A stretch of 64,000 nt of DNA from Steroidobacteraceae bacterium (GCA_965279665.1 OZ257256.1:1475871-1539870), one strand, 5' to 3'; shown: positions 30,429 to 45,987, numbered from the stretch's first letter. The notes: generated by a model not told the origin, from the sequence alone. Numbers and translations: made by a program.

Positions 30429-31224
30429 TTCGCGGTTTCGCCTAGACGGGCGCGTCTGCGTGGTGACGGGGGGTGCCGGAATCCTGGGCGAGCCCATGTG
30501 TCACGCGCTGCTGACGCAGGGTGCGCGCGTGGCCGTCCTCGATCGGGAGACAAGCAGTCTCGAGGCGGCGCTGTCGCGCATGCCGGCGGCCTTCCGCGAT
30601 CAGGTGGTGATGGTTCGCGCTGACATCACCGATCGCGAAGATCTCGTCCGCGCACGCGCGGATATTCGATCGGCACTCGGCGACGCGGACGTTTTGGTCA
30701 ACAACGCGGCGGCGAAGAGCGCCAATTTCTTCGAGCCGTTCGAGTCGTTCCCGCTCGCGGACTGGAACGAAGTCATGGGCGTGAACCTGACCGGCGCCAT
30801 GCTGTGCTGCCAAGTGTTCGGCGCGTCGATGGCCGAACGCCAGCGTGGCAGTATCATAAACACCCTGTCGATCTACGGAATCGTGGCGCCCGACCAGCGC
30901 ATCTACGAAGGTGCGTTCTACGAGGGCATGGCGATCAACACGCCTGCCGTTTACAGCGCCAGCAAGGCGGGCCTCTGGGGACTGACGAAGTATCTCGCAG
31001 CCTACTGGGGGGCGGCGGGCGTCCGGGTCAACGCCATCACGCCCGGAGGAGTCTTCAGCGGCCAGAACGACGCCTTCGTGCAGCGCTACAGCGCGCGCGT
31101 GCCTCTCGGGCGAATGGGCCAGCGCGAAGAGATGGCGTCGGCTGTGGTCTACCTTGCGTCGGACGCGTCGTCCTACGTGACGGGGCTGAATCTGGTGGTG
31201 GACGGGGGGCTCACGGCATGGTGA
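30421..31224 (+). CDS. SDR-family oxidoreductase (PtmA-like)
   Basis: 'GRVCVVTGGAGILG', 'NNAA' and 'YSASKAGLWGLTKYLA'. Confidence 0.85.
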   Translation: MTDSRFRLDGRVCVVTGGAGILGEPMCHALLTQGARVAVLDRETSSLEAALSRMPAAFRDQVVMVRADITDREDLVRARADIRSALGDADVLVNNAAAKSANFFEPFESFPLADWNEVMGVNLTGAMLCCQVFGASMAERQRGSIINTLSIYGIVAPDQRIYEGAFYEGMAINTPAVYSASKAGLWGLTKYLAAYWGAAGVRVNAITPGGVFSGQNDAFVQRYSARVPLGRMGQREEMASAVVYLASDASSYVTGLNLVVDGGLTAW

Positions 31225-32249
31225 GTTCATCTTCGTGCTACGTGATCGCCGAGGCCGGCGTCAACCACAACGGCTCGCTTGATCTTGCGCTGCGCCTGAT
31301 CGACGCGGCGGTTGAGGCCGGCGCCGACGCGGTCAAGTTCCAGACTTTCCGCGCCGAGACGCTCGTCGGCGCCGGTGTGTCGAAGGCGGCATACCAGGAG
31401 CGTGCTACCGGCGGCGGTGATCAGCGGGCGATGCTCAAGGCGCTGGAACTCGCGTTTGAAGACCACGTCGCGCTATACGAACGCTGCGTGGAGCTCGGAA
31501 TCGAATTCCTGTCGACGCCGTTCGACGCGGAGGCGCTCAAGTTCCTGGTCGGCCTCGGCATGCGTCGCGTCAAAATTGCGTCCGGAGAGTTGACCAACCG
31601 ACCATTCATCGAGCTCGCCGCGTCCACGGGTCTGCCGATCATTCTCTCGACGGGGATGGCGGAGTTGTCGGAGGTCGGCGAAGCGATCGATTGGATCCAA
31701 CGTGCGCGCCCGTCGCCGATGCCGACCGCCGAAATCGTGCTGCTTCACTGCACATCGAACTATCCGACGGCGCTCGTGGACGTGAACCTGCGCGCGATGT
31801 CGACCATGGCGCAGGCATTCGGGCTGACCGTTGGCTACTCGGACCACACTGCAGGAATCGAGGTGGCGCCTCTCGCCGTTGCGCTCGGGGCGATGGTGAT
31901 CGAGAAGCACTTCACGCTGGATCGTTCACTACCGGGCCCCGACCACATGGCGTCGCTTGAGGTGCCCGAACTGCGCGAGATGATCCGGTCCATCCGGTCC
32001 GCCGGTATTGCGCTTGGCGATGGTGCGAAGGCGCCCCGCCCGGCCGAGATCGCAGTCAGGGATCTGGTTAGGCGCAGCGTCGCGGCCCGACACGACCTGC
32101 CGGCTGGCCACGTGCTGCGAAGCGAAGATCTGAGCTGTATGCGTCCCGGAACCGGGATTCCGCCCAAAAACCTCGGTTCCGTCGCAGGGCGCTCGTTGCG
32201 CCGGGCAATATCTGCCGGCGCATTGATCACGGAGCAGGATCTGGCGTGA
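31218..32249 (+). CDS. neuB: N-acetylneuraminate/legionaminate synthase family (NeuB + SAF)
   Basis: The ATG at 31218 gives 'MVSSSSCYVIAEAGVNHNGSL'. Also 'ADAVKFQTF', 'VKIASGELTN', 'STGMA', 'LLHCTSNYP' and 'GYSDHT'. The ORF-track start at 30804 lies inside the preceding SDR gene. Confidence 0.92.
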   Translation: MVSSSSCYVIAEAGVNHNGSLDLALRLIDAAVEAGADAVKFQTFRAETLVGAGVSKAAYQERATGGGDQRAMLKALELAFEDHVALYERCVELGIEFLSTPFDAEALKFLVGLGMRRVKIASGELTNRPFIELAASTGLPIILSTGMAELSEVGEAIDWIQRARPSPMPTAEIVLLHCTSNYPTALVDVNLRAMSTMAQAFGLTVGYSDHTAGIEVAPLAVALGAMVIEKHFTLDRSLPGPDHMASLEVPELREMIRSIRSAGIALGDGAKAPRPAEIAVRDLVRRSVAARHDLPAGHVLRSEDLSCMRPGTGIPPKNLGSVAGRSLRRAISAGALITEQDLA

Positions 32250-33376
32250 GTCGGCGAGTGCTCTATGTATCTGGGACGCGTGCGGACTTTGGTCTGATGC
32301 GCTCTACGCTGTTGAGGCTTCAGGCGGACGAGCGGCTGGATGTGGCCGTCTGCGCAACCGGTCCGCACCTCATGCAGGAGCATGGCATGACGGTGACCGA
32401 GATTCGCGAGTCCGGTCTGCGCGTGGCCGCCTGCGTCGAAGCCCCCGTCGCGGTCAGCACTGGAGCGGGGATGGCGAAAGCCGTCGCCGCGTCGCTTGCG
32501 GGAATCGTCGACGTCATCGAGCGCGAGAAGCCCGAAATCGTGATGCTGCTCGGGGATCGGGGCGAGATGCTGGCCGGAGCGATCGCAGCCGTACATGTTG
32601 GAATACCCATCGTGCATCTGCACGGCGGAGAGCGCTCCGGAACGATCGATGAACAGGTTCGGCACGCGATCTCGAAGTTGTCGCACTTTCATTTTGTCGC
32701 AACTCAGGCTTCCCGGGAACGGCTGTTGCGGATGGGTGAGTCGGCTGACAGGGTGTTCGTCACGGGCGCGCCCGGCCTGGACGGGCTATTGGATTCGGTG
32801 CAATGCAGTCGAGAGTCGCTCGCCGCCGAAGAGGGGCTGGATCCCGGCAAACCGATCGCTCTAATGGTGTTTCATTCCGTGGTGCAGGACGCTTTGGAGG
32901 CTGGTGACCAGGCGGCGGCCATCCTGCGCGTGCTAGCCAAAAAAGGCCTGCAGGTGGTTTGCCTGCGGCCCAATTCAGACGCCGGTGGCAGCGCGATCCT
33001 CGACCGTCTGCAGCAGCAGCGCTCGTCACGGTTCCGCCTGCACACCCACTTTCCGCGCGCACGTTTTGTAGGCTGGATGAGCGCCGCTGATTTCATGATT
33101 GGCAATTCGAGCAGCGGCATCATCGAGGCGCCCGTCTTCGGCGTTCCCGTCGTCAACGTCGGCGACCGGCAAGCGTTGCGTGAAAGATGCGCGAACGTGA
33201 TCGACTCTGATTACACTGACCGCTCGATCAATTCTGCTGTGGAGCTCGCGCTGCAACGCGGCCGGCGGTCGACCGAAAACTTGTACGGCGATGGGCATGC
33301 AGGCGAACGTATCGCGGCGCTCATTGCCGTACTCCCGCTGCATGCCGGCCTTCTCAAGAAAATCAATGTCTACTAG
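32246..33376 (+). CDS. neuC: UDP/GDP-N-acetylhexosamine 2-epimerase (hydrolysing), NeuC family
   Basis: 'VLYVSGTRADFGLM', 'VMLLGDRGEMLAGA', 'VHLHGGERSGTIDE' and 'IGNSSSGIIEAP'. Confidence 0.9.
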   Translation: MSRRVLYVSGTRADFGLMRSTLLRLQADERLDVAVCATGPHLMQEHGMTVTEIRESGLRVAACVEAPVAVSTGAGMAKAVAASLAGIVDVIEREKPEIVMLLGDRGEMLAGAIAAVHVGIPIVHLHGGERSGTIDEQVRHAISKLSHFHFVATQASRERLLRMGESADRVFVTGAPGLDGLLDSVQCSRESLAAEEGLDPGKPIALMVFHSVVQDALEAGDQAAAILRVLAKKGLQVVCLRPNSDAGGSAILDRLQQQRSSRFRLHTHFPRARFVGWMSAADFMIGNSSSGIIEAPVFGVPVVNVGDRQALRERCANVIDSDYTDRSINSAVELALQRGRRSTENLYGDGHAGERIAALIAVLPLHAGLLKKINVY

Positions 33377-33995
33377 ACGGCTGATTCTCATTGGTGCCGG
33401 CGGCCACGGCAGCGTTGTCTATGATGCCGCTCGTCTGTCGGGTAGATGGGAGGTTGTCGAACTGCGCGACGATCGCCAGGTCGAGACCGGCGGGCGGTTT
33501 GATGGCCTTGCCGTCCGCGTTCCGGCGATTCCCGCCGAGTCGCTCGAGAATGCAGAGGTTCACGTGTCGATCGGCGACAACACGATCAGGGCACGAATCT
33601 GCTCCTCCCTGCGCGCACTGGGCGCACAGGTCGTTCCAATTGTTCATCCAGCTGCGATCATCGCGCGTACGGCAACGCTCTCCCCTGGTGCGTTCGTGGC
33701 CGCGGGAGCCGTCGTGGCGCCGCACGCGCGGGTCGGCGAGGGCGTCATCATCAATCATGGCGCTGTTGTGGACCACGACTGCGTGGTCGGGGCATGGACA
33801 CATGTCGCGCCGGGAGCGTTGCTTGGGGGCGGCGTGCTTGTTGGCTCCGATGTGCTGATGGGGACAGGTTGCGTGGTGCTTCCGGGTTTGTCCGTCGGCG
33901 ATGGATCAACCGTCGGCGCTGGCGCGGTCGTGACCCGGCCAGTAGACGCCAAGAGTGTGGTGATCGGAATGCCTGCGCGGAGGGTCAATTCGTGA
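33366..33995 (+). CDS. NeuD/PglD-like sugar N-acetyltransferase (left-handed beta-helix)
   Basis: The ATG at 33366 gives 'MSTRRLILIGAGGHGSVV'. The C-terminus has hexapeptide repeats ('VGEGVIINHGAVVDHDCVVGAWTHVAPGALLGGGVLVGSDVLMGTGCVV'). Confidence 0.85.
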   Translation: MSTRRLILIGAGGHGSVVYDAARLSGRWEVVELRDDRQVETGGRFDGLAVRVPAIPAESLENAEVHVSIGDNTIRARICSSLRALGAQVVPIVHPAAIIARTATLSPGAFVAAGAVVAPHARVGEGVIINHGAVVDHDCVVGAWTHVAPGALLGGGVLVGSDVLMGTGCVVLPGLSVGDGSTVGAGAVVTRPVDAKSVVIGMPARRVNS

Positions 33996-35461
33996 TGCGA
34001 CCGGCAACACCGTTTCTCGTCGGACGGGATGCGACCCTGCGCGATGCTTTCGGGAAGATCGAGCGCGGCGCCTGCGGGATCGCACTGCTGGTGGAGACCG
34101 ACGGCAGGCTGGTACGCACGGTCACTGATGGAGATCTACGGCGGTTGATCCTGGGGGGTGCCGATCTCTCCAGCCAGATGTCGGGGCTCCCTGCACGGGC
34201 GTCGGTCACTGCCGGTACGGAAGTCGATCCGGCACGGGCACTTGAGATTCTCAACGAGCGCAAGATTGATCACCTCCCGGTAGTCGACGAGCAGGGCCAT
34301 CCGGTCGGGGTCTATTTCCGGCGCGACATCGACGCACAGATCTTGCTGTCGACGCCGCACATGGGCTCCTTCGAGCGGGAGTACGTGGATGAGGCGTTCA
34401 GGACTAACTGGATCGCGCCACTCGGACCCAACGTCGATGCCTTCGAGCGCGAGCTTGCCGCTTACGTCGGTATTGGGCACGCCGCCGCCGTCGTCTCTGG
34501 CACGGCGGCGCTGCACCTGGCGCTGAGACTGGTCGGGGTGCAGCGGGGCGATCGCGTCTTTTGCTCCAGCTTCACGTTCGTCGCGAGTGCCAATCCGATT
34601 CTGTACGAGGGCGCAGTCCCGGTATTCATCGACTCGGAGCCGGAGTCATGGAACATGTCCCCGCTTGCTCTTGAGCGCGCGCTCGAAGACGCGTCGCGCC
34701 GTCGACAGCTGCCGAGAGCGGTGATCGTCGTCAATCTCTATGGGCAGAGCGCCGACATGGATCCGCTGCTGGAATTGTGCGGACGGTACTCGATTCCGGT
34801 CATCGAGGACGCTGCGGAGTCTCTCGGGGCGTCCTATCGCGGCCGGAAGAGTGGAACTATTGGGCGGATCGGCACGTACTCGTTCAACGGTAACAAGATC
34901 ATCACTACTTCCGGCGGCGGCATGCTCGTGTCGGACGACGAGGATCTTATCCGGCACGCCCGCAAGCTCTCTACACAGGCTCGCGAGCCGGTTGGTCACT
35001 ACGAGCACTTAGAGGTCGGGTACAACTACCGAATGAGCAATGTGCTTGCGGGTATTGGAAGAGGTCAACTCAAAGTTCTCGACGCGCGAGTCGCCGCGCG
35101 GCGACGGGTATTCCAGCGGTACGTCGACGGCGTCAGCGGCGTTGCCGGGCTCGAGTGGATGCCCGAGCAGTCGTTTGGAACGTCGACGCGCTGGCTGACG
35201 GCAGCAGTAGTGCGACTAGATGGTGGTCCGGAGAGGCTAATCGCAGCTCTTTCTGGGCATCGCATAGAGGCCCGTCGCGTTTGGAAGCCGATGCACCTTC
35301 AACCACTCTTCCACGGTGCTGAGTACTTTGAGCACAAGCATGGAAACGACGTATCGCGTGACCTATTTGAGCATGGCGTCTGTCTACCATCAGGTTCGAA
35401 CCTATTGGAAGACCAGCTGGACCGAATCATCGAGGCTCTGCGAGCTGCGCTTGCGGGTTGA
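33995..35461 (+). CDS. CBS-pair domain fused to a DegT/PglE/LegC-like sugar aminotransferase
   Basis: The ATG at 33995 overlaps the upstream stop. CBS pair ('GRLVRTVTDGDLRRLIL', 'HLPVVDEQGHPVGVYFRRDI'). Then 'LSTPHMGSFEREYVDEAF', 'VVSGTAALHLAL' and 'SFNGNKIITTSGGGML' (PLP-lysine). Confidence 0.88.
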   Translation: MRPATPFLVGRDATLRDAFGKIERGACGIALLVETDGRLVRTVTDGDLRRLILGGADLSSQMSGLPARASVTAGTEVDPARALEILNERKIDHLPVVDEQGHPVGVYFRRDIDAQILLSTPHMGSFEREYVDEAFRTNWIAPLGPNVDAFERELAAYVGIGHAAAVVSGTAALHLALRLVGVQRGDRVFCSSFTFVASANPILYEGAVPVFIDSEPESWNMSPLALERALEDASRRRQLPRAVIVVNLYGQSADMDPLLELCGRYSIPVIEDAAESLGASYRGRKSGTIGRIGTYSFNGNKIITTSGGGMLVSDDEDLIRHARKLSTQAREPVGHYEHLEVGYNYRMSNVLAGIGRGQLKVLDARVAARRRVFQRYVDGVSGVAGLEWMPEQSFGTSTRWLTAAVVRLDGGPERLIAALSGHRIEARRVWKPMHLQPLFHGAEYFEHKHGNDVSRDLFEHGVCLPSGSNLLEDQLDRIIEALRAALAG

Positions 35462-36993
35462 AGCTGCGAGTGCCACCGATGTTCCGCATGCTCTTTGTCA
35501 ATACTGCGGTTTCGGGCCTAGTATTTGCGGTCTCCAGCGTGCTGGTGCTCCTTTTGGTACCGATCTTGCTCGGTGCATATGGCGCATCCGGGTTGGGATT
35601 GATCATGCTCGCCAGGGCGTTTCTACCGACGGGACTGGGCGCCCTCTTCGATCTTGGGGTGTCGGAGGTCGTCGCTCAGGCCGTCGCGCGCGCGAGAGAG
35701 AGCAAAGAGTGGTCCACGGCAGGCGGCCAGGTGACCTTGCTCGCAGGAGTCGCTTTACTCGTTGGCGGGCTGCTCGGAGCCGGCTTGTGGGGTTACGCGG
35801 GAGCTTTAGCCGAGATACTGCGGGTGAACGATTCGCAATCTTCCAGCTTCGCCGAGCTGCTGCAGCTCACTGGGGTTGCTCTGGTCCTGCTCTTTCCGGC
35901 GCTGGTGGCGGAAGGCGTCGTCAAGGGATTCGAGGCCTATTGGGCGCTCCGCCTAGCCGAGCTAGTGCCAACCGTGGGCTACGTTTTGGGATCCGTCGCG
36001 CTGGTCGAATTTGGCTACGGCTATCAGGCCGTTGCCCTGATGTTCCTCGGTTCCATTCTGCTGCGCGCGTTGATTACCATTGTCATCGCTATCAACTTGT
36101 CGCTGCGCGCGAATCTGCGCATGCAACGATGCGCGCGGCTTGATCGTGCTGACGCGCTCGAGCGCTGTCGACTGATGTTCGCGGGTAAGGCGGTCACAGC
36201 TCTTCAGACGCAGGCTCCTCCACTCGCGATCGGGGCGTTGATTGGTCCAGCCGGCGTTGGTGTGTACGACGTTCTTTCCCGATTGCCGAGGTTCGCTAAG
36301 TCGATCCTTGGCCTCCTTACGTCCCTGTTGACGCCGATCAGTGCTCGTCTCGACGAGGCCCGTGACACGGACGGGCAGCGACGGCTGGGAAGTGCGGGAG
36401 TACTGCTCGTGCCGTTGCTGGTCATTCCGGTGCTGGGCGCTGCGGCACTGCTGTCGGCGCCTCTGCTCGGTCTCTGGCTTGGACCCGAGTACCGGAGCCT
36501 CTGGGGCTGGCACTCGGCGATGTTCCTCGTCACGACTTTGGCGTCGCTGGTTAGTTTCGCGTCGGTCGTAGTGATGGTCAGGAAGGCTGATGCGCGCCGG
36601 GTCATCCGGATGACGGCCGTCATGGTCATGGCTCAATACGGTATCTCGCTGATTGCCGTCGGCTTACTGCAGGAACGTGCGTTCATCCTCGGGCAGGTAC
36701 TGGCTGCTGTGATGGTGTTTCCGTTCCAGCTTAGATTTCTGCTGTTGGCGCAGGGGGTGCCCATGGCTGCACTGGTCAGGCTCCTCGCATCACTGATCGC
36801 GATGAGTGTCTCCGTGGCAGTCGTCGCGCCGATCGTGGTCGACCGAATACAAGATCTGCTGACCACACTTCTGGTCGGTGCTTGCTGGGCGATCGCTTGG
36901 TGGCTTCTGTTGACTCGCGTTTTGCTGACTGGTGCGCAACGCCGCGCTGTGAGCAATGCCCTGAATGGACTCCTGGCATCTGGGCGGCGGTAG
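35458..36993 (+). CDS. wzx: Wzx-type polysaccharide flippase (MOP superfamily)
   Basis: ~500-aa highly hydrophobic protein with about 12-14 predicted TM helices. It has the typical position and size of a flippase. TTGA overlap with the upstream stop; an alternative ATG is at 35479. Confidence 0.7.
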   Translation: MKLRVPPMFRMLFVNTAVSGLVFAVSSVLVLLLVPILLGAYGASGLGLIMLARAFLPTGLGALFDLGVSEVVAQAVARARESKEWSTAGGQVTLLAGVALLVGGLLGAGLWGYAGALAEILRVNDSQSSSFAELLQLTGVALVLLFPALVAEGVVKGFEAYWALRLAELVPTVGYVLGSVALVEFGYGYQAVALMFLGSILLRALITIVIAINLSLRANLRMQRCARLDRADALERCRLMFAGKAVTALQTQAPPLAIGALIGPAGVGVYDVLSRLPRFAKSILGLLTSLLTPISARLDEARDTDGQRRLGSAGVLLVPLLVIPVLGAAALLSAPLLGLWLGPEYRSLWGWHSAMFLVTTLASLVSFASVVVMVRKADARRVIRMTAVMVMAQYGISLIAVGLLQERAFILGQVLAAVMVFPFQLRFLLLAQGVPMAALVRLLASLIAMSVSVAVVAPIVVDRIQDLLTTLLVGACWAIAWWLLLTRVLLTGAQRRAVSNALNGLLASGRR

Positions 36994-38129
36994 TGATTGC
37001 CATATCCGCAAAGCTGGGCTATTTCGACTGGCTTCGGGCGCTATCCTCGCAGAGCGTCGTGGTCGGTCACGCGCTGAACATTTTTCTGCCGTCACTGTTC
37101 ATGGTCGAGCGTGCCGACGGATTCCTGGAGGCCGCGAGGAATGTGCCGTACATCCAGAATCTTGGCGTCGTAGTGTTCTTCGCGCTGTCGGGCTATCTCG
37201 TGACGTCCTCGGTCGTGCGAAAGGCGCGAATGCCGCACTACTCATTCGAAGCATTCCTCGTTGATCGGGCGACACGCATCTTTGTTCCTCTGTTGCCTGC
37301 GATTGCGCTCGTCTGGATCTTCGATACCTTGCTTCTAGGGGCGGGAGCCGATAATCCGTACACTGACGTCTCTCTAGGTCCCTGGACCGTCATCGCAAAC
37401 GTGCTGATGATCTTCAACCATCCGGCAATGTCAATCGCCGCGAAGCTTACGGGCATCCCCGGCGCCGCGACCGGCCCAATCGGCACCGCCGATCCGTTCT
37501 GGACTGTGGTCCTCGAGTGGTGGATCTACGTAACGTTTGGGTTGTTTGTTCTCAAGATACTCAACGGGCGTCGTCTCGGTTTCTCGGGAGCAGCGTTACT
37601 GCTGTTCGCTCTCGCGCCGCTCGTCGTTTCCCTCAGTGGCGGTTCCGGTCTGATACTCGCATGGCCCGTCGGCATGCTGGTTGCGATTGCCGAACCGACT
37701 CTGCGTTCCGTGAACGCTCGGCTGATCGGCGCAACCGTGGTTCTCGCCGTGGGCGTGGCCGTTGCGGTCTGGTTGCGGACGCGATTCGATTTCTATGCAC
37801 CCGTCTTCGTCGTATGCTTTGCGTACGCAATGACGGCGGTCGTGACGCTGGATCGCCGGCCGGAACCGCTGGCACAAAAGACCGCCGGCGGAAGCCTCTT
37901 TGTCGAGCGACTTTCAGACTATTCCTACTCTCTTTACCTCGTGCACTTTTCCATTCTGATCTACCTGCAGTTATACCTCCCGCGGCACTGGAATCCCGTC
38001 GCTTCGATCTTGCTGTCTGTGGTGGTGTGCAACGGTGCCGCGTTCGGGTTCTGGTGGCTGTTCGAACGCCACTATCTAAATGTGCGTCGCGCTGCACTGC
38101 TGAGGCTCGAGAACAGTCGATTGCGCTGA
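36993..38129 (+). CDS. acyltransferase family 3 membrane protein (polysaccharide O-acetyltransferase)
   Basis: The GTG at 36993 overlaps the wzx stop. 'YFDWLRALSSQSVVVGHAL', 'VVFFALSGYL', and about 10 TM helices typical of Acyl_transf_3. Confidence 0.7.
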   Translation: MIAISAKLGYFDWLRALSSQSVVVGHALNIFLPSLFMVERADGFLEAARNVPYIQNLGVVVFFALSGYLVTSSVVRKARMPHYSFEAFLVDRATRIFVPLLPAIALVWIFDTLLLGAGADNPYTDVSLGPWTVIANVLMIFNHPAMSIAAKLTGIPGAATGPIGTADPFWTVVLEWWIYVTFGLFVLKILNGRRLGFSGAALLLFALAPLVVSLSGGSGLILAWPVGMLVAIAEPTLRSVNARLIGATVVLAVGVAVAVWLRTRFDFYAPVFVVCFAYAMTAVVTLDRRPEPLAQKTAGGSLFVERLSDYSYSLYLVHFSILIYLQLYLPRHWNPVASILLSVVVCNGAAFGFWWLFERHYLNVRRAALLRLENSRLR

Positions 38130-38171
38130 ATCCCGTCCTTTCACAACGGCTTCGCCGAATTCGCCCACACA

Positions 38172-39059
38172 ATGCAAACACCGCTGATCAGTCGAGCCAT
38201 CTGGCATCTTCATCGCACGCCCGCTGCGGCAATGCTGAAGCAGGCGCTGCGCCTGGCGCATGGCGGCGCATGTCGCCAACGTCGCGCACTGCTTTCGCAG
38301 CTTCCTAGCGACCCGGTGATTAGCGCGTTGGCCAAGTCCCTTGATGACGAAGGGCACGTCATGCTGAGTCCCGTTGCTGATCCAGCGCTCCTTCAGACGC
38401 TTTGGCGTCATGGTGTGGACAAGCTCCAGCGCCGTGAGCATCTTGCGCAGAGCCAGGCCACCAAACACAAGAGTTTCTGGGTTCGCTTGTCTGACGAAGA
38501 CGTCGTCGATGGTCAGTTCGATGTCGGCAACCCCATGGTGCGCTTCGCGCTGCAACCGAGAATTCTTGCGGTGATAGCGCAGGCTTTCGGAGAAGTGCCG
38601 CAGTTATCGGACGTGCTGATGTCGCTATCATCTGATTCCGATCCAGAACTGAAGTATTCTCAGCTCTGGCACAGGGATTACGACGATGTCAGGACCATAA
38701 AGCTTTTCTCGTACTTGACGGATGTGCTGTCTGAGGAAGACGGTCCATTCACATTCATTCCAGGCGCGGAGTCAGATCGTGTTCGTTTCACTACCAGAAC
38801 TCATTTGCCGGATGCGCAGTTGCTACGGAGCGGGGTCTTGCACCCCCGCTCCGTAAAGGCACCGCGCATGTCCGTGTTTGCCGTGGAGACTTCGCGTTGT
38901 CTGCACATGGGAAGCCGGATGGCGCCCGGACATGCGCGCCTGCTGTACACTGCGACATTCATCAGGTACCCGCGTCTTTACCCCGAGCCGCCGCCCCGAT
39001 TCCGGCTCGAGACGGCTGCCGACAATCTGACGCGAGCTGTGCTCACGGCCGGCCATTAG
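38172..39059 (+). CDS. hypothetical protein, possible Fe(II)/2-oxoglutarate dioxygenase (PhyH-like)
   Basis: 'LWHRDYDD' (HxD), 'IKLFSYLTDV..EDGPFTFIPG' and the distal 'RCLHMG' His resemble the PhyH facial triad. This is a by-eye assignment only. Confidence 0.4.
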   Translation: MQTPLISRAIWHLHRTPAAAMLKQALRLAHGGACRQRRALLSQLPSDPVISALAKSLDDEGHVMLSPVADPALLQTLWRHGVDKLQRREHLAQSQATKHKSFWVRLSDEDVVDGQFDVGNPMVRFALQPRILAVIAQAFGEVPQLSDVLMSLSSDSDPELKYSQLWHRDYDDVRTIKLFSYLTDVLSEEDGPFTFIPGAESDRVRFTTRTHLPDAQLLRSGVLHPRSVKAPRMSVFAVETSRCLHMGSRMAPGHARLLYTATFIRYPRLYPEPPPRFRLETAADNLTRAVLTAGH

Positions 39060-39080
39060 CCCTTCACCGAGAGCGCCGTA

Positions 39081-40472
39081 GTGCATCTTGGAGTCATCGT
39101 AGATCACCCGAAGCGCGACCTGCCCGGGGCAGTGATGTTGGCCGCGGCGCTTGTTCGCCGGGGCTGCCGCGCGAGCATCATTCCGCTCTATGAGCAGGGC
39201 GTAGACGTTCCGCTCCTTGGGCTGGATGCCCTGATTGTCACCTTCGCACGACCTGCGAATGTGGATCTCGTCGACGGCTACAAACGCATGGGCTTGCCGG
39301 TCTATGTGCTCGACACCGAGGGTGGCGTACTCACGGAGTCCGGTGCCAACTCGCCGGAGCAGCTTGCGCGGTATGTATCACGAAGCGGCTTTCGGGAGCT
39401 GCTGGCCGGCTATTTTTTCTGGGGCTCGCGAACCCGTGATGCGTTCGTCGCGGATTCCGGCATGCCAGCGCCCAGGTTGCGGACCACTGGCTGCCCTCGC
39501 TTCGACTACGCGAGCCCGCGATGGTGGGACCTGCTCGACTTCGAGTTACGCGACTACATCCTAGTCAATGCCAATTTTCCGCTGGTCAACCCGCTGTTTG
39601 TGCGCACGCCGGAAGAGGAGGTCGGATCTCTGGTGGCAGCCGGCTGGGATCGCCAGTACGTCACTCAAATGTTCGAAGATCTCAAGCGGATCATGTCGGG
39701 GTACGTTGCTTCCGTCTTGGAAATGGCGCGGCAGTTTCCCGATCTCACAGTTCTCGTCCGGCCGCATCCGTTCGAGCGCGCCCGGACCTACATCGATGCG
39801 TTCGCACAAGTCCCGAATATTCGGGTGGACGGGCGCGGAAGCGTCCTCAATGTCATCAGGAACGGCCGTTGCGTTGTGCACCTCAACTGCGGGACCTCGA
39901 TTGAGGCGACAATGCTTAGACGGCTGCCAGTTTCGCTCGAGTACCTCAATACGCCCCTGATGGCGAAGCACGGACCGCTGCCGAGCCGAATCAGTCTTCC
40001 GGTTCGTTCGGCGTCGGAGCTGTTCCATGTAGTAGCGAATCTAGAGAAACTGACGTCTGAATTTGCGTTCGAGCGGAACTACGGGGAAGAGATCAAGCCG
40101 TGGTTCCACGACAATGACGGTGCGGCCGCCGATCGCATCGTGGAGGCGGTGCTGGGCGACGTAGGTCGATGCGACCGTGGGCGCCACAGCATCGCATGGT
40201 CGCTGGGCAGCAGTCGGCGCAGAACGCGGCTTTCCCAAAGGATGCAGGCTCTCGCAGGGAATTTTCTTGGGTCGTCCACAACCTCTCGCTTGCGAGCACT
40301 GTCGAGTCCTGTGAGACAGGAAAAGCACTTTGGTCCGAGCACCGTCGCCGGCATGCTGGCGCGCATCGCAGCACACGAGTCGCGGCCGCCGCCCGTGTGT
40401 GTACACGCGCGTCACCCGTGGACCGGGCTCGCGCTGTCAACGGTGTCAGTGACACCAGGGCGCGGAGGATGA
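39081..40472 (+). CDS. hypothetical GT-B-like surface-carbohydrate biosynthesis protein (candidate ulosonic-acid transferase)
   Basis: GTG start. The N-terminus 'VIVDHPKRDLPGAVMLAAALVRRGCRASIIP' resembles the 'surface carbohydrate biosynthesis protein' families found next to nonulosonic-acid genes. 'VRPHPFE' and 'VVHLNCGTSIEA' look like a nucleotide-sugar-binding half. The C-terminal ~90 aa are Arg/Ser-rich. Confidence 0.4.
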   Translation: MHLGVIVDHPKRDLPGAVMLAAALVRRGCRASIIPLYEQGVDVPLLGLDALIVTFARPANVDLVDGYKRMGLPVYVLDTEGGVLTESGANSPEQLARYVSRSGFRELLAGYFFWGSRTRDAFVADSGMPAPRLRTTGCPRFDYASPRWWDLLDFELRDYILVNANFPLVNPLFVRTPEEEVGSLVAAGWDRQYVTQMFEDLKRIMSGYVASVLEMARQFPDLTVLVRPHPFERARTYIDAFAQVPNIRVDGRGSVLNVIRNGRCVVHLNCGTSIEATMLRRLPVSLEYLNTPLMAKHGPLPSRISLPVRSASELFHVVANLEKLTSEFAFERNYGEEIKPWFHDNDGAAADRIVEAVLGDVGRCDRGRHSIAWSLGSSRRRTRLSQRMQALAGNFLGSSTTSRLRALSSPVRQEKHFGPSTVAGMLARIAAHESRPPPVCVHARHPWTGLALSTVSVTPGRGG

Positions 40473-41848
40473 TCGTGGGTGCTGGTCCGACCATCGTTTT
40501 CACGACGCTGGCCCGCTATCAGACGGAGTTCTGGATTCGGATCGCCAGAGAGATGGCACAGAGCGGATATCGCGTCGCGTTCCTGTCCTTTGACGATCCG
40601 AGTACGGCGCAATTGCGTGCCGCGGGCCAGCGCGTGTATGGGCCGCCGAGGATCGACTACGAGCGCGACTATCCGCCAATTGACCTAGACAACCTGAACT
40701 TCTGGCTGTCACACGAGCGCTTCGTCTTCGGTGAGACACTGACGGCCAGGCTTGAGCGACGCCTGGCCGCCTACCTTCATTGCGCGCGAGAAGCTCTCGA
40801 GGAATTGCATCGCGAAGGGCCCGTCACGCTCGTCCAGGAAGTGGGAGGATTCCTTTCGGTCATCGCCAGTTTCTTCGCGGCGCGCGAACGCGGTATCGAT
40901 AACTGGTTCGTTGAGCCGGCCTTCTTTCGGGGGCGAGTGTTCCTAAATAGGAATTCCTTCGCTGCGCCTCGAATCACCGGGGCTTTGCCCGAGACGGTGA
41001 GTGTGCCCGTCGAGCGCTATTTGGCGGATACGATTGCGACCCAGTCGATCGTGGTGCCGCTCAAGGACCGACACCAGTATCGATCCGCTTCGCGCAAGGT
41101 ATTTAACCTGCGAAACGCAAAGCGGCTGGTAGAGAAGCTCGTTGACAAGCATGTGTTCCGCCGGCACATGGAGTTTGGGCACATCGGCCGCCATGCGTTC
41201 ACGCACCTCGCGATGGTGCGCAACAGCATTTCGATGCGGAGCAGCTACACTCCATTGTCCGAGGCTGGACCTTTCGTCTACTACCCCCTTCATGTTCCCG
41301 GGGACATGGCGCTCACACTGAGATCCCCGGAGTATCTGGATCAGTTGGCGCTCGTTGACTACCTCGCGAGAATCGTGCCTGCATCCCATCGCGTGGCGAT
41401 AAAGGAGCATCCGGCGATGATCGGCGCGCTCGATTCGACCCGCGTTCGCTCGCTGCTGCGACAGCACGACAACGTGGTCGTATTGCCTCCCGAGACCAAC
41501 AACTTCGACGTGCTCCGTGCGTCCACCGCGGTCGTCTCGGTGAACTCGAAATCCGGCGCAGAAGCAGCCTTGATCGGAAAGCGAGTGCTCGTACTCGGCG
41601 ACGCCTTCTACACGGAAGCCCCTATCGTCGAGACAGTGCGGAGACTGGCTGATCTCCCCGGAAGACTAGCTAGTTGTGTTGTGAACCCCCAGCCTCCTGC
41701 AGACGCTGTGACGGTCGCGAGGTACTTCGAGCTCGTGTGGCGCGGGTCATCGCCCGGCGAACTCTACGTAGGCTCGGAGTCGAGCGCGGCCACGTTTGCG
41801 CAGTCACTGAACGAGGCGATTCTCAGAGGCTCGAGCGGGGCGCATTGA
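40469..41848 (+). CDS. capsule polysaccharide biosynthesis protein (Capsule_synth family, KpsS/KpsC-like)
   Basis: The ATG at 40469 (GGAGG upstream, ATGA overlap) gives 'MIVGAGPTIVFTTLARYQTEFW'. 'VYYPLHVPGDMALTLRSPEY', 'VAIKEHPAMIG' and 'VVSVNSKSGAEAALIGKRVLVLGDAFY' match the KpsS/KpsC-type fold. Confidence 0.7.
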   Translation: MIVGAGPTIVFTTLARYQTEFWIRIAREMAQSGYRVAFLSFDDPSTAQLRAAGQRVYGPPRIDYERDYPPIDLDNLNFWLSHERFVFGETLTARLERRLAAYLHCAREALEELHREGPVTLVQEVGGFLSVIASFFAARERGIDNWFVEPAFFRGRVFLNRNSFAAPRITGALPETVSVPVERYLADTIATQSIVVPLKDRHQYRSASRKVFNLRNAKRLVEKLVDKHVFRRHMEFGHIGRHAFTHLAMVRNSISMRSSYTPLSEAGPFVYYPLHVPGDMALTLRSPEYLDQLALVDYLARIVPASHRVAIKEHPAMIGALDSTRVRSLLRQHDNVVVLPPETNNFDVLRASTAVVSVNSKSGAEAALIGKRVLVLGDAFYTEAPIVETVRRLADLPGRLASCVVNPQPPADAVTVARYFELVWRGSSPGELYVGSESSAATFAQSLNEAILRGSSGAH

Positions 41849-41849
41849 G

Positions 41850-43247
41850 ATGGCGTGGATCGGAGTCACGAGCGGATTGATGCTTCTCGCCTGGCTTTGG
41901 CGGTTCGTGCGTACGCGTCCGATTCTTGCAGTCGCCTTCTTCTTCATCTTTTTTCAGATCGTCCTGCGCACCAGCGCGTCAATATTCCTGGACGCATTCG
42001 GCCCCGTCTATGCCGTCGAGCTCGACGACGAGGTGGGCGGCACGGGCGCCACTCTCGGGTGGGCATTAGCGGTCGTGATCACGGTCCTGACGGTGGCGGC
42101 TTTCCTCTCTCCGCGTACCATTTCCCGAGGGCTGAAGCCTGCCGCTGGCCCGGCGTTGGATGAGGCGATAACGGTAGGAGATGTCGGCTTCTGGCTGGCG
42201 GCGCTTCTCGTATTTGCGCTCTACGCCGACATGATTGCCGGCGGCGTCATCCCGCTGCTAGAGGGGCTCGAGCGTTGGGAGTACACGGAACAGTACGCCG
42301 GTCCCGTGCATCGTTGGTTCTTCGAATTCGGCATTATCGTCGTGTTCGTTCTTGGCATGCTCAGCGTATATCCGCGCGCAATCGGTGGGCGTACCGATCT
42401 TCGATTCGTGGCCCTTCTTGGCGTGATATTTGTGTACTGCGTGCTGGCGGGGCACCGCTTCTCGATCTTCTATGCATTCGGCGCATACTTTCTGCTGCCG
42501 CGCGCCGTACTCTCGATGCCTGGTATTCCCGCTTCCGTCGAAGTGTCTGCTGCCTCACTTTGGATCCGGAGAGTGGCAGCTTCGCGGCTGGCCCGCTTCT
42601 CGGGAACTGCCGTCGCGATCGCGCTTGTAGCGTTCGCGCTGATCAATTCCCTATTGAACGTTCGCGGGTTCGCCCCGGCGCTGGCTCTCTTCTCCTTTGC
42701 ACAGCGCGTGCTTGTGCAGCCGCAGCAGATGTGGTTCGTGACTTGCGAGCGGGTGTTGACCAACGGGCAATACGACCCGGGTGCTGCGTTCGCATTCCTG
42801 TTCGACGACCCGATCGACCCGGAGCGAAATACGACGGTCCAGTATCTGATGGCGTTGGCGCTCGGCGAGCGCCGCGCCACCGAGATCATCGCGCAGGGAA
42901 TGCAGTACGCTGGTGGCTTCCCCGAGATCTTCTTCGAACTGGCGGGCCCCTATCTCGGCTGGCTGCTCGTCTTCCTGCTGGCGGTGTTTGTCGGCTCGCT
43001 GCTCAGGGGATTGTTGCGGGCCATCTTCGAAGGCCGGCTCCTGTCGGCATTTGCGATCCTGTACGTTCTCTTCGCCTTCTTTATCACCTACATCGGCGGG
43101 ATGCTGAATAATCTGGTCGCGGCGACCTTCTGGATCAAAGTCGCCTTCATGTTCGTGGTGCTCGCTCTGGAGCGGGGCAGCGATGGCAGGCCGCAACCCG
43201 TATTGCCTTGGGTACTGTGGGTGCCAAGACGAGTACTGCAGTCATGA
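41850..43247 (+). CDS. polytopic inner-membrane protein, candidate Wzy-type polymerase
   Basis: 465 aa with more than 10 hydrophobic segments and a large loop ('VQPQQMWFVTCERVLTNGQYDPG'). No other polymerase candidate lies in the locus. The assignment rests on context only. Confidence 0.45.
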   Translation: MAWIGVTSGLMLLAWLWRFVRTRPILAVAFFFIFFQIVLRTSASIFLDAFGPVYAVELDDEVGGTGATLGWALAVVITVLTVAAFLSPRTISRGLKPAAGPALDEAITVGDVGFWLAALLVFALYADMIAGGVIPLLEGLERWEYTEQYAGPVHRWFFEFGIIVVFVLGMLSVYPRAIGGRTDLRFVALLGVIFVYCVLAGHRFSIFYAFGAYFLLPRAVLSMPGIPASVEVSAASLWIRRVAASRLARFSGTAVAIALVAFALINSLLNVRGFAPALALFSFAQRVLVQPQQMWFVTCERVLTNGQYDPGAAFAFLFDDPIDPERNTTVQYLMALALGERRATEIIAQGMQYAGGFPEIFFELAGPYLGWLLVFLLAVFVGSLLRGLLRAIFEGRLLSAFAILYVLFAFFITYIGGMLNNLVAATFWIKVAFMFVVLALERGSDGRPQPVLPWVLWVPRRVLQS

Positions 43248-44011
43248 CCGCTGAGGCCCGCCAAGACCTCGTCTCGGTCGTCACTCCAGCTTGGCGCGCC
43301 TCCCGTTTCGTGGGCGAGACGATCCGCTCCGTCCAGGCGCAGGAACACGCGCACTGGGAAATGCTGGTCGTGGACGATTGCTCACCGGATGACACTGCAG
43401 CCGTTGTTGACAGCTTTGCAGAGCGCGATCCGCGTGTCCGTCTGATCCGGCAGCCTCGCAACGGCGGGCCTGCCGCTGCGCGCAATGCTGCGCTCGAGGC
43501 CGCGGCCGGCCGATACCTCGCGTTTCTCGATAGCGACGATCTCTGGCTGCCGGGAAAGTTATCGACTCAGCTGGCGTTCATGCGCAATGAGCGAGTCGCG
43601 CTCTCATATACCGAGTTCAGGCGAATCTCGGAGGATGGCGTGAGGACCGGCGATCGTGTGCAGGTTCCCCAGGCGCTGACGTATCGACAGTTGCTGTGCG
43701 ATACGTCGATCGCGACGTCGACTGTGATGATCGACCGGACGCTCGCCGGCGAGTTCCGGATGAAGAAGACGTACTACGACGATTTCGCCGCGTGGCTCGA
43801 GATCCTGCGTCGCGGCCACGTCGCGAGGGGCTTGCGGGAGGACCTTATGCGGTATCGCGTGGTTGGCAAGTCAGTCTCTCGGAACAAGCTGCGGTCTGCA
43901 GCCATGGTCTGGCGAGCCTATCGCGAAATCGAACACCTTGGTTTTCTCGATTCAAGCTGGTGCTTCCTGAACTATGCGATCCGTGGAACGCTCAAGTACC
44001 GTCGTTTCTGA
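43244..44011 (+). CDS. glycosyltransferase family 2
   Basis: ATGA overlap with the upstream gene. 'VSVVTPAWRASRF', 'VVDDCSPDDT' and 'FLDSDDLW' (DxD). Confidence 0.88.
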   Translation: MTAEARQDLVSVVTPAWRASRFVGETIRSVQAQEHAHWEMLVVDDCSPDDTAAVVDSFAERDPRVRLIRQPRNGGPAAARNAALEAAAGRYLAFLDSDDLWLPGKLSTQLAFMRNERVALSYTEFRRISEDGVRTGDRVQVPQALTYRQLLCDTSIATSTVMIDRTLAGEFRMKKTYYDDFAAWLEILRRGHVARGLREDLMRYRVVGKSVSRNKLRSAAMVWRAYREIEHLGFLDSSWCFLNYAIRGTLKYRRF

Positions 44012-44966
44012 TCGTTCGCGGGTCGCGGTGGTGACGGGCGCCCGCGGATTCGTCGGCGCACGGACCGTGCTTGCGCTGCGTGCCCGCGGTTGGCGCGTTC
44101 GAGCAGTGTCGCGTACCGCCCCGCAGGCGATAGCCGAGGGAGTGGACGGCGTATGCGTGCCGTGCCTCGAGGATCCGGCTGCATGGGACCGCGTGCTATC
44201 AGGGGCCGAGGTCATCGTGCACTGCGCAGGACTGGCACACGTCGCAGAGGCAGTCGCCGTCGAACGTCGCGACGCCTTCATGCGCGTAAACGTCGAGGGA
44301 ACTCTTTCACTCGCGTCCGCTGCCTTGCGGCAGGGCGTGAGGCGGATGGTGTTCGTGAGTTCGATCGGGGTCAACGGCAGTCGCACGGGGGATCGCCCGT
44401 TCAGCGAAGTCGATCCGCCCGATCCGAAGGGCGTATACGCCGATTCCAAGCTCAGGGCGGAAAGGGCTCTCAACGAGCTGGCACGCGATACTGCGCTCGA
44501 GACCGTGATCGTGAGGCCCTGTCTGGTTGTGGGACCCGGAGCGCCGGGCAACCTTGAGCGTCTCGTCTCTCTGCTGCGCCGGGGGCTTTGGATCCCGTTC
44601 GGTTCGGTCGACAATCGGCGAAGTCTGATCGGCGTCGATCGGCTCGCCGACCTTCTCGCAATCGCGGCGCAGCATCCGGCCGCAAATGGGCGCGTGTTTC
44701 TTGCCGCGCAGGACCCGCCCGTGTCGACGCCCGCCATCGTCCGCGCGCTCGCACGGGGGGCCGGACTCAAGCCGCGACTTGTCAGCGTTCCGGTGCCGAT
44801 GCTGCGCCTGCTTGGAACTCTGCTGGGGCGGCGCGTCGACATAGACCGTCTTTGTGATTCGCTCGAAGTCGACGCGTCGGCCGCGCGCGAACTGCTCGGC
44901 TGGACCTGCGATACATCCATCCTGAGCGAACTCGAGCGCGCCGCGGCAGTTCATCGCAATGTCTGA
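43974..44966 (+). CDS. NAD-dependent epimerase/dehydratase-family reductase (WbpK/WbpV-like 4-ketoreductase)
   Basis: 'VAVVTGARGFVGART', 'SSIGV' and 'YADSKLRAE' (YxxxK). It sits immediately before a WbpL-like gene, as in Pseudomonas O-antigen loci. The start is uncertain. Confidence 0.8.
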   Translation: MRSVERSSTVVSDRSRVAVVTGARGFVGARTVLALRARGWRVRAVSRTAPQAIAEGVDGVCVPCLEDPAAWDRVLSGAEVIVHCAGLAHVAEAVAVERRDAFMRVNVEGTLSLASAALRQGVRRMVFVSSIGVNGSRTGDRPFSEVDPPDPKGVYADSKLRAERALNELARDTALETVIVRPCLVVGPGAPGNLERLVSLLRRGLWIPFGSVDNRRSLIGVDRLADLLAIAAQHPAANGRVFLAAQDPPVSTPAIVRALARGAGLKPRLVSVPVPMLRLLGTLLGRRVDIDRLCDSLEVDASAARELLGWTCDTSILSELERAAAVHRNV

Positions 44967-45987
44967 TCTCGTTCTCGCAGCGTTGCTCTGCGCATTGAGC
45001 GTGCTGGCGTCGTGGGTGCTGACGGGCTTGATTCGCCGGCGCGCAATGCAGAGCGGAATGCTCGATCGCCCGAATGAACGCAGCTCGCACAACACGCCTA
45101 CGCCGCGCGGAGGAGGGCTCGCTGTTCTGATAGTGACGGGCGCCGGCATTGCAGTAGCTATCGCGATCGAGCTACTCCCGGCCGCGGTTGGGTTGGCAGT
45201 GTTGCCCGGGTACCTCGCGATAGGCTGGATCGGCTGGCGCGATGATCGGCAGGGCGTCCCCGCTTCGATACGTTTCGTCGTTCATCTCGCGTCTGCGGCC
45301 TGGCTGCTGGTCGTCATCGAGGCCACACTTGGCTCCGGCAATATGATCGCGTCGGTCCATGCGGTCGCGGTGGCGGGTTTCCTGTGGATCTCGATCGCAT
45401 GGGCCACCAATGTGTTCAATTTCATGGACGGCATCGACGGGATTGCCGGATCTCAGGGGATTTTCCTTGGAGCGGCCGGCGTCGGCATCGCGATTCTGCA
45501 GGGGCAACCGGGATTTGCGGTTCTCTGGGCAGTCGTCGCCGGAAGCTGCGCAGGATTCCTCGTCTGGAACTGGCCGCCCGCAAGAATCTTCATGGGCGAT
45601 GTCGGCAGCGGATCACTGGGCTTCCTGTGCGCGGCGCTGCCCGTCGTATCCGGTGGCGGTCGCCTGGATGCGATCTGGCCGTGGGTGATTCTGTGGAGCA
45701 CATTCGTCGTCGATGCGACGGTGACGTTGATTCGTCGGGCCATGCGCCGTGAGGCCGTCCACAAGGCGCACCGTAGCCACGCCTATCAGTGGATGTCGCG
45801 CCGCTGGAATTCTCATACGCGTGTCACGGTCTGTTTCATCTCGATCAATGTTCTCTGGGTCGCGCCGTTAGCGTACGTGGCGGCGCTTTGGCCGGCCCGA
45901 GGAATGGTTGCCGCCATGGGCTGTCTCGCTCCGCTGGTGGTGTTGGCGTTGATTGCTGGGGCCGGAAAATCCGAGACGTCGCCGTGA
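44959..45987 (+). CDS. wbpL: undecaprenyl-phosphate HexNAc-1-phosphate transferase (GT4/MraY-WecA family, WbpL-like initiating enzyme)
   Basis: 'DRPNERSSHNTPTPRGGGLAV', 'NVFNFMDGIDGIAG', and about 10 TM helices. Confidence 0.85.
   Translation: MSDLVLAALLCALSVLASWVLTGLIRRRAMQSGMLDRPNERSSHNTPTPRGGGLAVLIVTGAGIAVAIAIELLPAAVGLAVLPGYLAIGWIGWRDDRQGVPASIRFVVHLASAAWLLVVIEATLGSGNMIASVHAVAVAGFLWISIAWATNVFNFMDGIDGIAGSQGIFLGAAGVGIAILQGQPGFAVLWAVVAGSCAGFLVWNWPPARIFMGDVGSGSLGFLCAALPVVSGGGRLDAIWPWVILWSTFVVDATVTLIRRAMRREAVHKAHRSHAYQWMSRRWNSHTRVTVCFISINVLWVAPLAYVAALWPARGMVAAMGCLAPLVVLALIAGAGKSETSP

Follow-up and report, generated by a model that had tools for sequence, protein, structure and literature searches.

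Two candidate ulosonic-acid transferases and a predicted tailoring oxygenase in a conserved Wzx/Wzy cassette of a Steroidobacteraceae bacterium

Genetic studies in Tannerella forsythia have shown that BFO_1060, Tanf_01245 and TFUB4_00887 add a pseudaminic acid (Pse) or legionaminic acid (Leg) derivative to the O-glycan of the S-layer, and the same work assigned these proteins a GT-B/TagB-like architecture that includes D/E-D/E-G and HP motifs (PMC5420450). For the glycosyltransferases (GTs) WbbB, KpsC and KrkA it has been documented that the Asp of a QXXXD motif is the nucleophile of a double-displacement reaction, that the Gln of this motif binds the carboxylate of the sugar, and that an HP motif binds cytidine monophosphate (CMP) (PMC12887879). 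To the same lineage belongs KpsS1 (GT118) of Acinetobacter baumannii, which is encoded in a Wzy-type capsule locus and is a retaining transferase of 5,7-di-N-acetylpseudaminic acid (Pse5Ac7Ac; Walklett et al. 2024, cited in PMC12887879). Here we describe three consecutive genes, termed g1, g2 and g3, in a stretch of 64,000 nucleotides from a Steroidobacteraceae bacterium (GCA_965279665.1 OZ257256.1:1475871-1539870), the whole of which is called the window. Judged from sequence and genomic context, g2 is most likely a Leg transferase with Pse transferases in its sister clade, g3 is most likely the transferase of an invariant second ulosonic acid, and g1 most likely tailors a glycan that contains a nonulosonic acid (NulO), at or near the Leg/Pse residue. 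The three genes are:

38172-39059, plus strand: g1, 295 aa, a soluble PhyH-type Fe(II)/2-oxoglutarate (2OG) oxygenase
39081-40472, plus strand: g2, 463 aa, GTG start codon, a TIGR04396 GT-B protein, proposed CMP-legionaminic-acid transferase
40469-41848, plus strand: g3, 459 aa, a divergent Capsule_synth (KpsC/KpsS/WbbB-like) GT, proposed retaining transferase of the second ulosonic acid

A sequence-only reading of the window had placed three open reading frames (ORFs) at these coordinates on the plus strand, and they proved to be real, conserved genes of the families first named. Homologues number in the hundreds for each protein (E < 1e-130 for g2 and g3, < 1e-76 for g1), the motifs quoted for g1 ('SQLWHRDYDD' and 'SRCLHMGSR') are present, the family calls hold by fold for g1 and by profile matches for g2 and g3, and AlphaFold2 modelling combined with Foldseek places g1 in the PhyH-type fold and g2 in the GT-B fold. 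Gaps of 42 bp and 21 bp precede g1 and g2, respectively. The proposed coupling of g2 to g3 is borne out by an ATGA overlap at 40469-40472 with GGAGGA just before it, and the ATG of the next gene follows one base after the stop codon of g3 (41846-41848). A longer ORF (40169-41848) was rejected as the g3 gene; the homologues have 454-475 aa, which matches the 459-aa product starting at 40469. The description of g2 and g3 as non-Leloir-looking turned out to be wrong, since both are GT-B-type enzymes of the nucleotide-sugar (CMP-sugar) kind. That the trio is uncharacterised is true of the g1, g2 and g3 subfamilies themselves, which are unassayed, but not of their wider kin: there is genetic evidence for Pse/Leg transfer by distant relatives of g2 (PMC5420450), and KpsS1 provides a precedent for g3 (PMC12887879). 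All three enzymes are thus of known kinds, with close functional precedents for both transferases.

The genomic context was gathered from four relatives and from two larger sets of loci, 64 in genomes retrieved with the g1 profile and 80 in metagenomes retrieved with the g3 profile. All were scanned for the three families by profile and searched with the proteins encoded next to the trio in the window. Homologues of g1 and g2 are often located on one contig. The recurring unit is a cassette comprising genes for a Wzx-type flippase, optionally g1, a g2-type and a g3-type protein, a DUF6418 Wzy-like protein and a GT2 glycosyltransferase. This cassette is common to many soil and water bacteria: it was found in Burkholderiales, a gammaproteobacterial metagenome-assembled genome (MAG), Salinisphaerales, many Bradyrhizobium species, Hyphomicrobiaceae and Sphingomonadales (together Beta-, Gamma- and Alphaproteobacteria), and in a looser form in a MAG of the cyanobacterium Spirulina. 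Its neighbour is a Leg-type pathway in some loci and a bona fide Pse pathway in others, the PseI of the latter scoring over the TIGR03586 cut-off. The g2-type proteins form two deep clades, each with both Alpha- and Betaproteobacteria, and class A was found in 25 Leg loci and class B in 34 Pse loci with a single exception (locus L008). The numbers of changes of the Leg/Pse label on the trees of the cassette genes were as follows:

g2 tree, 56 rows: 2 changes
g1 tree, 52 rows: 7 changes
Wzx tree, 56 rows: 7 changes
g3 tree, 53 rows: 13 changes
GT2 tree, 55 rows: 13 changes

In an analysis of independent pairs on the g3 tree, the g2 class switched together with the NulO type 6.5 times and in the opposite direction 0 times (p ~0.02-0.03). 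A first test of this kind on 26 loci had no power (p 0.5), and the 80 metagenome loci were then added. The same pattern is visible in Bradyrhizobium-like pairs of loci that differ in NulO type, where the g3 proteins are 89-94% and the GT2 proteins 87-96% identical, whereas identities amount to only 35-41% for g2, 39-45% for g1 and 32-36% for Wzx. The locus therefore consists of two halves, a constant one (g3, GT2 and a second CMP-ulosonic-acid operon) and an exchangeable one (the Leg/Pse pathway, g2, Wzx and g1). The 13 label changes on its tree imply that g3 is indifferent to the choice between Leg and Pse. Because the g2 clade follows Leg versus Pse while g3 and GT2 do not, we infer the donors of g2 and g3 as given above. 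This lends support to the earlier suggestion of one unusual transferase for each of two CMP-ulosonic-acid pathways. It is further backed by the presence of the second operon, marked by a gene fusion of NeuB with a TIM barrel, beside the cassette in most of the genomes checked: the fusion is located within 10 kb in 11 loci, and just past the fetched flank in 5 of 5 further genomes. The locus of Bradyrhizobium centrosematis LMG 29515 (L034) also carries an HddC-GmhB fusion, short-chain dehydrogenase/reductase (SDR) genes and an AP_endonuc_2 gene like those of the window.

In the window, which has a G+C content of 60-68% and belongs to a genome consisting of a single contig of 4.39 Mb, the trio is located inside a run of closely packed plus-strand genes (28768-45987). 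The following neighbours are relevant here:

21337-28629, minus strand: second CMP-ulosonic-acid operon (Pfam matches), proposed donor pathway for g3
28768-35461, plus strand: legionaminic-acid-type CMP-NulO pathway (Pfam and NCBIfam matches; 'Leg' inferred from gene content)
35458-36993, plus strand: candidate Wzx-type flippase with 12 hydrophobic segments by hydropathy, homologues of which in loci L001 and L003 carry PF01943 Polysacc_synt
36882-38129, plus strand: Acyl_transf_3 O-acyltransferase (PF01757, 4.7e-28), inserted here between Wzx and g1
41850-43247, plus strand: DUF6418 polytopic membrane protein (PF19982, 1.4e-13; ~10-12 hydrophobic segments), a cassette-conserved candidate for a Wzy-like polymerase
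43208-44011, plus strand: GT2 glycosyltransferase (PF00535, 8.3e-36) of the constant cassette half, which tracks g3 and not the Leg/Pse type

The Leg-type pathway comprises a GFO/MocA protein, a CMP-synthetase, an SDR, a NeuB/LegI-type synthase that scores over the TIGR03569 cut-off, a hydrolysing 2-epimerase, a PglD-like acetyltransferase and a CBS-aminotransferase. The second operon, which diverges from position 28629 on the minus strand, encodes a CBS-GHMP kinase, the NeuB-TIM-barrel fusion (the barrel being xylose-isomerase-like), a CMP-synthetase, three SDRs and an AP_endonuc_2 protein. Downstream of the trio, DUF6418 and GT2 are followed by an epimerase, a WecA-like GT4 initiating transferase, a WbpM/PglF-like dehydratase and ManC, and two Wzi proteins, a Wza-like protein and a Wzz/PCP-like protein are encoded farther upstream. 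Since Wzx, Wzy-like, Wzi, Wza-like and Wzz/PCP-like genes are present and a KpsM/T-type ATP-binding cassette (ABC) transporter was not seen among the scanned window ORFs, this is a Wzy-dependent capsule or exopolysaccharide (EPS) locus, in agreement with the sequence-only reading.

Some additional features of these pathways and of the export genes should be mentioned. Attached to the second ulosonic-acid operon is a complete guanosine diphosphate (GDP)-heptose route, encoded at 19550-21330 and 27181-28629 and made up of a GmhA-like SIS protein, a fusion of HddC with GmhB, and an HddA-like kinase fused to a CBS domain. The two Wzi paralogues, of 503 and 504 aa, are encoded in the region 9800-16764; the Wza-like protein that comes after them is unusually long (944 aa) and combines Poly_export with several SLBB domains. 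In the Pse pathway of L034, a formyltransferase-like gene (5191-5847) occupies the place expected for PseH, which hints at an N-formylated pseudaminic acid. In the genome of the closest relative (L006), the match to the NeuB-TIM-barrel fusion (G005:C2:78920-81181) spans five in-frame stop codons (3 TGA, 1 TAG and 1 TAA), which could reflect a pseudogene, errors in the MAG assembly or an alignment artefact.

The g2 protein matches TIGR04396 with 276.4 bits (cut-off 125), its residues 4-429 aligning with positions 2-426 of the 427 positions of the model. It also matches NF046086, the 'BFO_1060 family glycosyltransferase' profile of the T. forsythia Pse/Leg transferases (1.6e-16, 60.4 bits), mostly through its N-terminal 140 residues, and homologues of g2 score 71-84 bits with this profile nearly end to end. 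The AlphaFold2 model (predicted local distance difference test score, pLDDT, of 90) has a GT-B fold with two Rossmann-like domains according to Foldseek, and the best matches in the PDB are uridine diphosphate (UDP)-GlcNAc 2-epimerases of GT-B fold, plus a TagF-like capsule polymerase. A search of the PDB with the g2 profile gave no match. Across 81 relatives, D78 and E80 (in D-T-E-G-G), R140, R227, H229, P230 and E232 (in R-P-H-P-F-E) and N269 are invariant. Thus, g2 contains both an HP motif (H229-P230) and a D/E-D/E-G-like motif (D78-T-E80-G), the positions of which are presumably equivalent to those in the T. forsythia enzymes. The T. forsythia enzymes and g2 are alike in their GT-B/TagB-like architecture, in these two motifs and in having strain- or clade-specific versions for Pse and Leg. 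They differ in that g2 belongs to the separate TIGR04396 family, not NF046086, and has a conserved, basic C-terminal extension of ~100 aa, and in that the T. forsythia acceptor is a protein O-glycan, whereas g2 presumably acts on a lipid-linked capsule repeat unit. A literature search on the name 'surface carbohydrate biosynthesis protein' returned nothing relevant.

The top 49 Foldseek matches of g2 being UDP-GlcNAc 2-epimerases, we considered that g2 might be an epimerase or hydrolase that modifies a nucleotide sugar in the Leg/Pse pathway rather than a glycosyltransferase; the clade of such a pathway enzyme would also be expected to track the NulO type. However, a match to Pfam Epimerase_2 was not obtained, and the Leg/Pse pathways are already complete by gene content, including an Epimerase_2 or PseG-like gene of their own. 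Moreover, the HP and D-x-E-G motifs and the relation to NF046086 point to CMP-sugar transferases (PMC5420450), and only one candidate transferase would be left for two ulosonic acids. We therefore regard such a role as very unlikely and retain g2 as the probable Leg transferase.

Concerning g3, a match to PF05159 Capsule_synth (3.5e-12, 46.8 bits against a gathering threshold of 20) extends over profile positions 143-267 of 310 only, and the g3 family profile retrieves KpsC (6mgd, 2.5e-5) and WbbB (5e-5) from the PDB. In the resulting alignment, K312-E-H314-P315 is placed on the HP motif of KpsC ('k-p-HP') and H275-V-P-G-D279 on its Q-V-E-S-D. The HP motif (K312-E-H-P315), D279 and N359-S-K-S-G-A-E365 are invariant across 107 relatives. 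The catalytic motifs of families GT99 and GT107, for which an examination of g3 had been proposed, are therefore present in part: the HP motif and the nucleophile Asp (D279) are kept, but the Gln of QXXXD is replaced by His (H275) in all 107 relatives, resulting in HxxxD. Like KpsC (GT107), the N-terminal module of WbbB (GT99) and KrkA (GT140), g3 has the C-terminal Rossmann half of a modified GT-B fold, the HP motif, the nucleophile Asp of an xXXXD motif and an N-S-x-x-G-x-E motif (PMC12887879). The resemblance amounts to 26 bits by profile and covers part of g3, and g3 differs from these enzymes by the His in place of Gln, by its Wzx/Wzy locus without KpsMT and by a donor that is probably not Kdo (3-deoxy-D-manno-oct-2-ulosonic acid). 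The comparison with A. baumannii KpsS1 is by description only: both are of the KpsS/KpsC lineage and encoded in a Wzy-dependent locus, and a nonulosonic acid is proposed for g3 as well. With this precedent, a Capsule_synth protein in a locus without KpsMT is not anomalous. KpsS1 takes Pse, whereas the donor proposed for g3 is a different, non-amino ulosonic acid, Leg/Pse being assigned to g2. In addition, the YE motif is absent from g3, which has conserved acidic residues in its N-domain (H82-E83, Q123-E124, E149). The possibility that g2 and g3 are fused or paralogous was examined and rejected: they are separate families, and a profile-profile comparison (hhalign) recovers no more than a common CMP-binding half (probability 23%, E 9e-4).

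The solved relatives found in the profile search are all beta-Kdo transferases, the Pfam family of g3 is Capsule_synth, and one genome has a g3 orthologue without the NeuB-TIM fusion. These facts would fit a g3 that uses housekeeping CMP-Kdo to attach Kdo as a residue or cap, in which case a different enzyme would transfer what the second operon makes. The cassette, however, encodes only three GTs besides the initiating transferase (g2, g3 and GT2), so that GT2 would be the remaining candidate, and enzymes of the GT2 type are not expected to use CMP-ulosonic acids; this leaves no enzyme for the product of the second operon. Furthermore, the NeuB-TIM operon is adjacent to most cassettes, the replacement of the carboxylate-binding Gln by His in 107 sequences suggests a different donor, and KpsS1 shows that this lineage transfers nonulosonic acids too (PMC12887879). 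Kdo transfer by g3 thus appears improbable, and transfer of the invariant second ulosonic acid is preferred.

The AlphaFold2 model of g1, built from an alignment of 39 sequences (A1), has a pLDDT of 92 and a predicted template modelling (TM) score (pTM) of 0.91. Foldseek relates it with a probability of 1.0 to more than 50 PhyH-type structures in the PDB (E down to 4.8e-10), as expected for a double-stranded beta-helix. The matched PDB structures are PhyH-type Fe(II)/2OG enzymes only and include the proline hydroxylase H11, GriE, SnoN, KanJ, EctD, AviO1/HygX and FtmOx1 (E 5e-10 to 5e-8, TM-scores 0.5-0.6). Across 78 relatives, distant ones included, H167, D169, H245, R249, R256, Q164, W166 and Y181 are invariant. 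The predicted metal triad is H167-x-D169...H245, and the predicted 2OG-binding residue is R256, which lies 11 residues past the distal His; we take this to be the usual position of the 2OG-binding Arg in PhyH-type enzymes, so that the spacing fits the PhyH pattern. SnoN (an epimerase), KanJ, HygX/AviO1, EctD, GriE and H11 share with g1 the beta-helix fold, the HxD...H motif and the Arg at +11 from the distal His, and several of these PhyH-family enzymes act on glycosides. They differ from g1 by an identity of only 12-20% at TM-scores of 0.5-0.6 and by the distinct N-terminal helical region (~95 aa) of g1. KdoO, a Kdo 3-hydroxylase, is an Fe(II)/2OG oxygenase that makes Ko (D-glycero-D-talo-oct-2-ulosonic acid) on lipopolysaccharide after Kdo transfer; it may serve as a functional analogy for g1, in line with the post-assembly hydroxylation or Ko-like modification suggested in the sequence-only reading, but no sequence or structural link between the two was found.

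The g1 protein itself has no match in Pfam or NCBIfam, in the case of Pfam not even at E <= 1, and it thus stays below the PF05721 threshold. Nevertheless, 27 of the 39 A1 sequences match PF05721 PhyH weakly (best 1.5e-7), and PhyH is the sole family matched by more than two of them, the remaining matches being scattered (E 0.05-0.5). The g1 profile found in the PDB only a 31-residue match to HygX (E 0.1), and direct sequence searches of the PDB with g1 and g2 returned noise only (de novo trefoils and an oxidoreductase; E 0.02-0.5). The protein lacks a hydrophobic or transmembrane segment. At E <= 1e-30 the family counts 75 members among 1.84 billion cluster representatives, and relaxing the limit to E <= 1e-10 raises this number to 347. 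A 275-aa database entry begins at Met21 (window 38172-38231 precedes it in our gene model), but we place the start at the ATG at 38172 because at least 90% of the 39 A1 sequences retain W11, R15 and P17, residues that precede Met21.

In the 30 cassettes with full flanks that were retrieved via g3, g1 was present 23 times and cleanly absent from five otherwise intact ones. The gene is thus dispensable in cassettes and therefore accessory, as expected of a tailoring enzyme. In other loci it is usually located directly after Wzx, and it travels with Wzx and the Leg/Pse half. Two cassettes without g1 (L099, Ga0268296_1018, and L112, Ga0209389_1000003; ~6986-11400), in which Wzx abuts g2, could be compared with g1-bearing ones (L102, L106 and L108): g2, g3 and GT2 are 90-94% identical between them, and Wzx 60-61%. 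This is a hint that g1 acts on the unit ahead of flipping and that the flippase senses the change, although linkage could explain the data equally well. Relatives of g1 with ~30% identity still adjoin NeuB and CMP-synthetase genes in Verrucomicrobiota, the candidate phylum Peribacteria and Cyanobacteriota, with Chthoniobacter and a gammaproteobacterial MAG also among the carriers, and methyltransferases, a sulfotransferase, Wzm/Wzt and a TagB-like protein are among the other neighbours.

In a Chthoniobacter MAG (L040, 9812-15021), Wzm/Wzt and a sulfotransferase are enclosed by a pair of distant paralogues of g1, a Leg-type pathway is adjacent, and the Wzt has a C-terminal glycan-binding domain. 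This arrangement suggests the tailoring of a terminal residue in an ABC-transporter-dependent O-antigen system. In L005, a presumed second PhyH-like gene paired with the other transferase was rejected, as the gene encodes a methyltransferase.

The co-variation of g1 with the NulO type would also be compatible with an enzyme that hydroxylates free CMP-Leg, CMP-Pse or the second CMP-ulosonic acid before transfer, in the manner of CMP-N-acetylneuraminic acid (CMP-Neu5Ac) hydroxylase. Distant relatives inside NulO biosynthesis runs without g2/g3 (L043 and L045) and the position of g1 directly after the Leg pathway in L004 are in line with this. On the other hand, cassettes that carry g1 and those that lack it have g2 proteins of 91-92% identity, which would be unexpected if the donor differed, and the usual place of g1 is next to Wzx, not within the pathway genes. 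We consider action on a free CMP-sugar unlikely, though a live alternative. The absence of g1 from some cassettes and the indirect nature of its substrate assignment could likewise be taken to mean that g1 is a passenger that acts on some small molecule or protein unrelated to the glycan and is tied to the locus by operon history only. Its linkage with NulO genes across several phyla at ~30% identity, the invariance of the catalytic residues and its place inside an operon of translationally tight spacing (gaps of 42 and 21 bp) all argue against this, and we regard it as very unlikely indeed. Tailoring of the NulO-containing glycan by g1 remains the preferred assignment. Hydroxylation is favoured because it is the default chemistry of the fold, and radical epimerisation stays open because of the structural match to SnoN. 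In the literature, our search found no paper linking a PhyH-type enzyme to Pse or Leg.

We interpret the observed folds, motifs, conservation, linkage and co-variation as follows with regard to donors, order of steps, and substrate and reaction of g1. The trio, with all three proteins soluble, would be the central part of a Wzx/Wzy-dependent capsule or EPS cassette, the part that decorates the repeat unit and adds its ulosonic acids; this unit would be assembled on undecaprenyl phosphate at the cytoplasmic face of the membrane. With its CMP-binding HP motif, g2 would transfer legionaminic acid from CMP-Leg, as its sister clade would do for pseudaminic acid. As a member of the KpsC/KpsS/WbbB/KpsS1 lineage, g3 would transfer the invariant ulosonic acid supplied by the NeuB-TIM-barrel operon in a retaining double displacement, with D279 as the predicted nucleophile, H275 where related enzymes have the carboxylate-binding Gln, and CMP held by H314-P315. 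Before flipping, g1 would tailor the unit, the likeliest reaction being hydroxylation of the Leg/Pse residue or of its N-acyl group, and an epimerisation as in SnoN being less likely. We consider this explanation as a whole to be probable, though not firmly established.

A number of observations weigh against this interpretation. The presence-absence link between g1 and Wzx represents a single event, and g1 and Wzx could co-vary with the NulO type because they are physically linked within a single recombination block, and not for functional reasons. The g2 protein stays far under the NF046086 cut-off (60 versus 200 bits) and is thus no member of that family, and its best structural matches are the UDP-GlcNAc 2-epimerases, which share the GT-B fold at TM-scores of only 0.47-0.59. 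The Gln of QXXXD is missing from g3, the nearest solved relatives of which transfer Kdo and not a nonulosonic acid. Locus L008 (Burkholderiales MAG, DASRFM010000085.1) has a g3 orthologue in a genome without the NeuB-TIM fusion (three NeuB homologues, 0/3 fused to a TIM barrel), and it pairs a Leg-type synthase and 2-epimerase with a Pse-class g2 on a long branch; a PglD-like gene was not found in its flank. The g2 of another locus (L029) forms a very long branch. In L004 (GCA_900472245, UCHK01000003.1, 57-10921), g1 is located beside a Leg pathway with neither g2/g3 nor Wzx or Wzy within 10 kb; g1 and a GT2 gene flank the pathway, with a 713-aa protein without family matches upstream and an IS110 transposase downstream, so that L004 may represent a different assembly route or a disrupted locus.

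What is new in these data is the cassette, the rule that connects TIGR04396 clade and donor, the HxxxD variant of the KpsC-lineage motif, and a conserved PhyH-type oxygenase tied to NulO. A more far-reaching combination of ideas can be put forward tentatively, and we rather doubt that it holds in full. According to this, g1 would found a family of NulO-altering Fe(II)/2OG enzymes that act on the lipid-linked unit by C-H hydroxylation or SnoN-like epimerisation; this would yield a so far undescribed NulO derivative that a co-evolving Wzx recognises, and the TIGR04396 proteins would be general Leg/Pse-specific polysaccharide transferases with a donor that is predictable from the clade.

Known Leg and Pse transferases are scarce, and such enzymes are in demand for glycoengineering and as a means to understand bacterial surfaces. 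By the sequence rule obtained from co-variation, a TIGR04396 protein goes with Leg or with Pse according to its clade, which opens a widespread, uncharacterised family to direct testing, and the occurrence of the cassette in cultured Bradyrhizobium, Sphingopyxis and Qipengyuania strains makes genetics feasible. The results also point to an enzyme of the KpsC lineage that handles a second, unstudied ulosonic acid, and a conserved oxygenase tied to nonulosonic acids would, if true, bring a novel type of decoration to this group of sugars.

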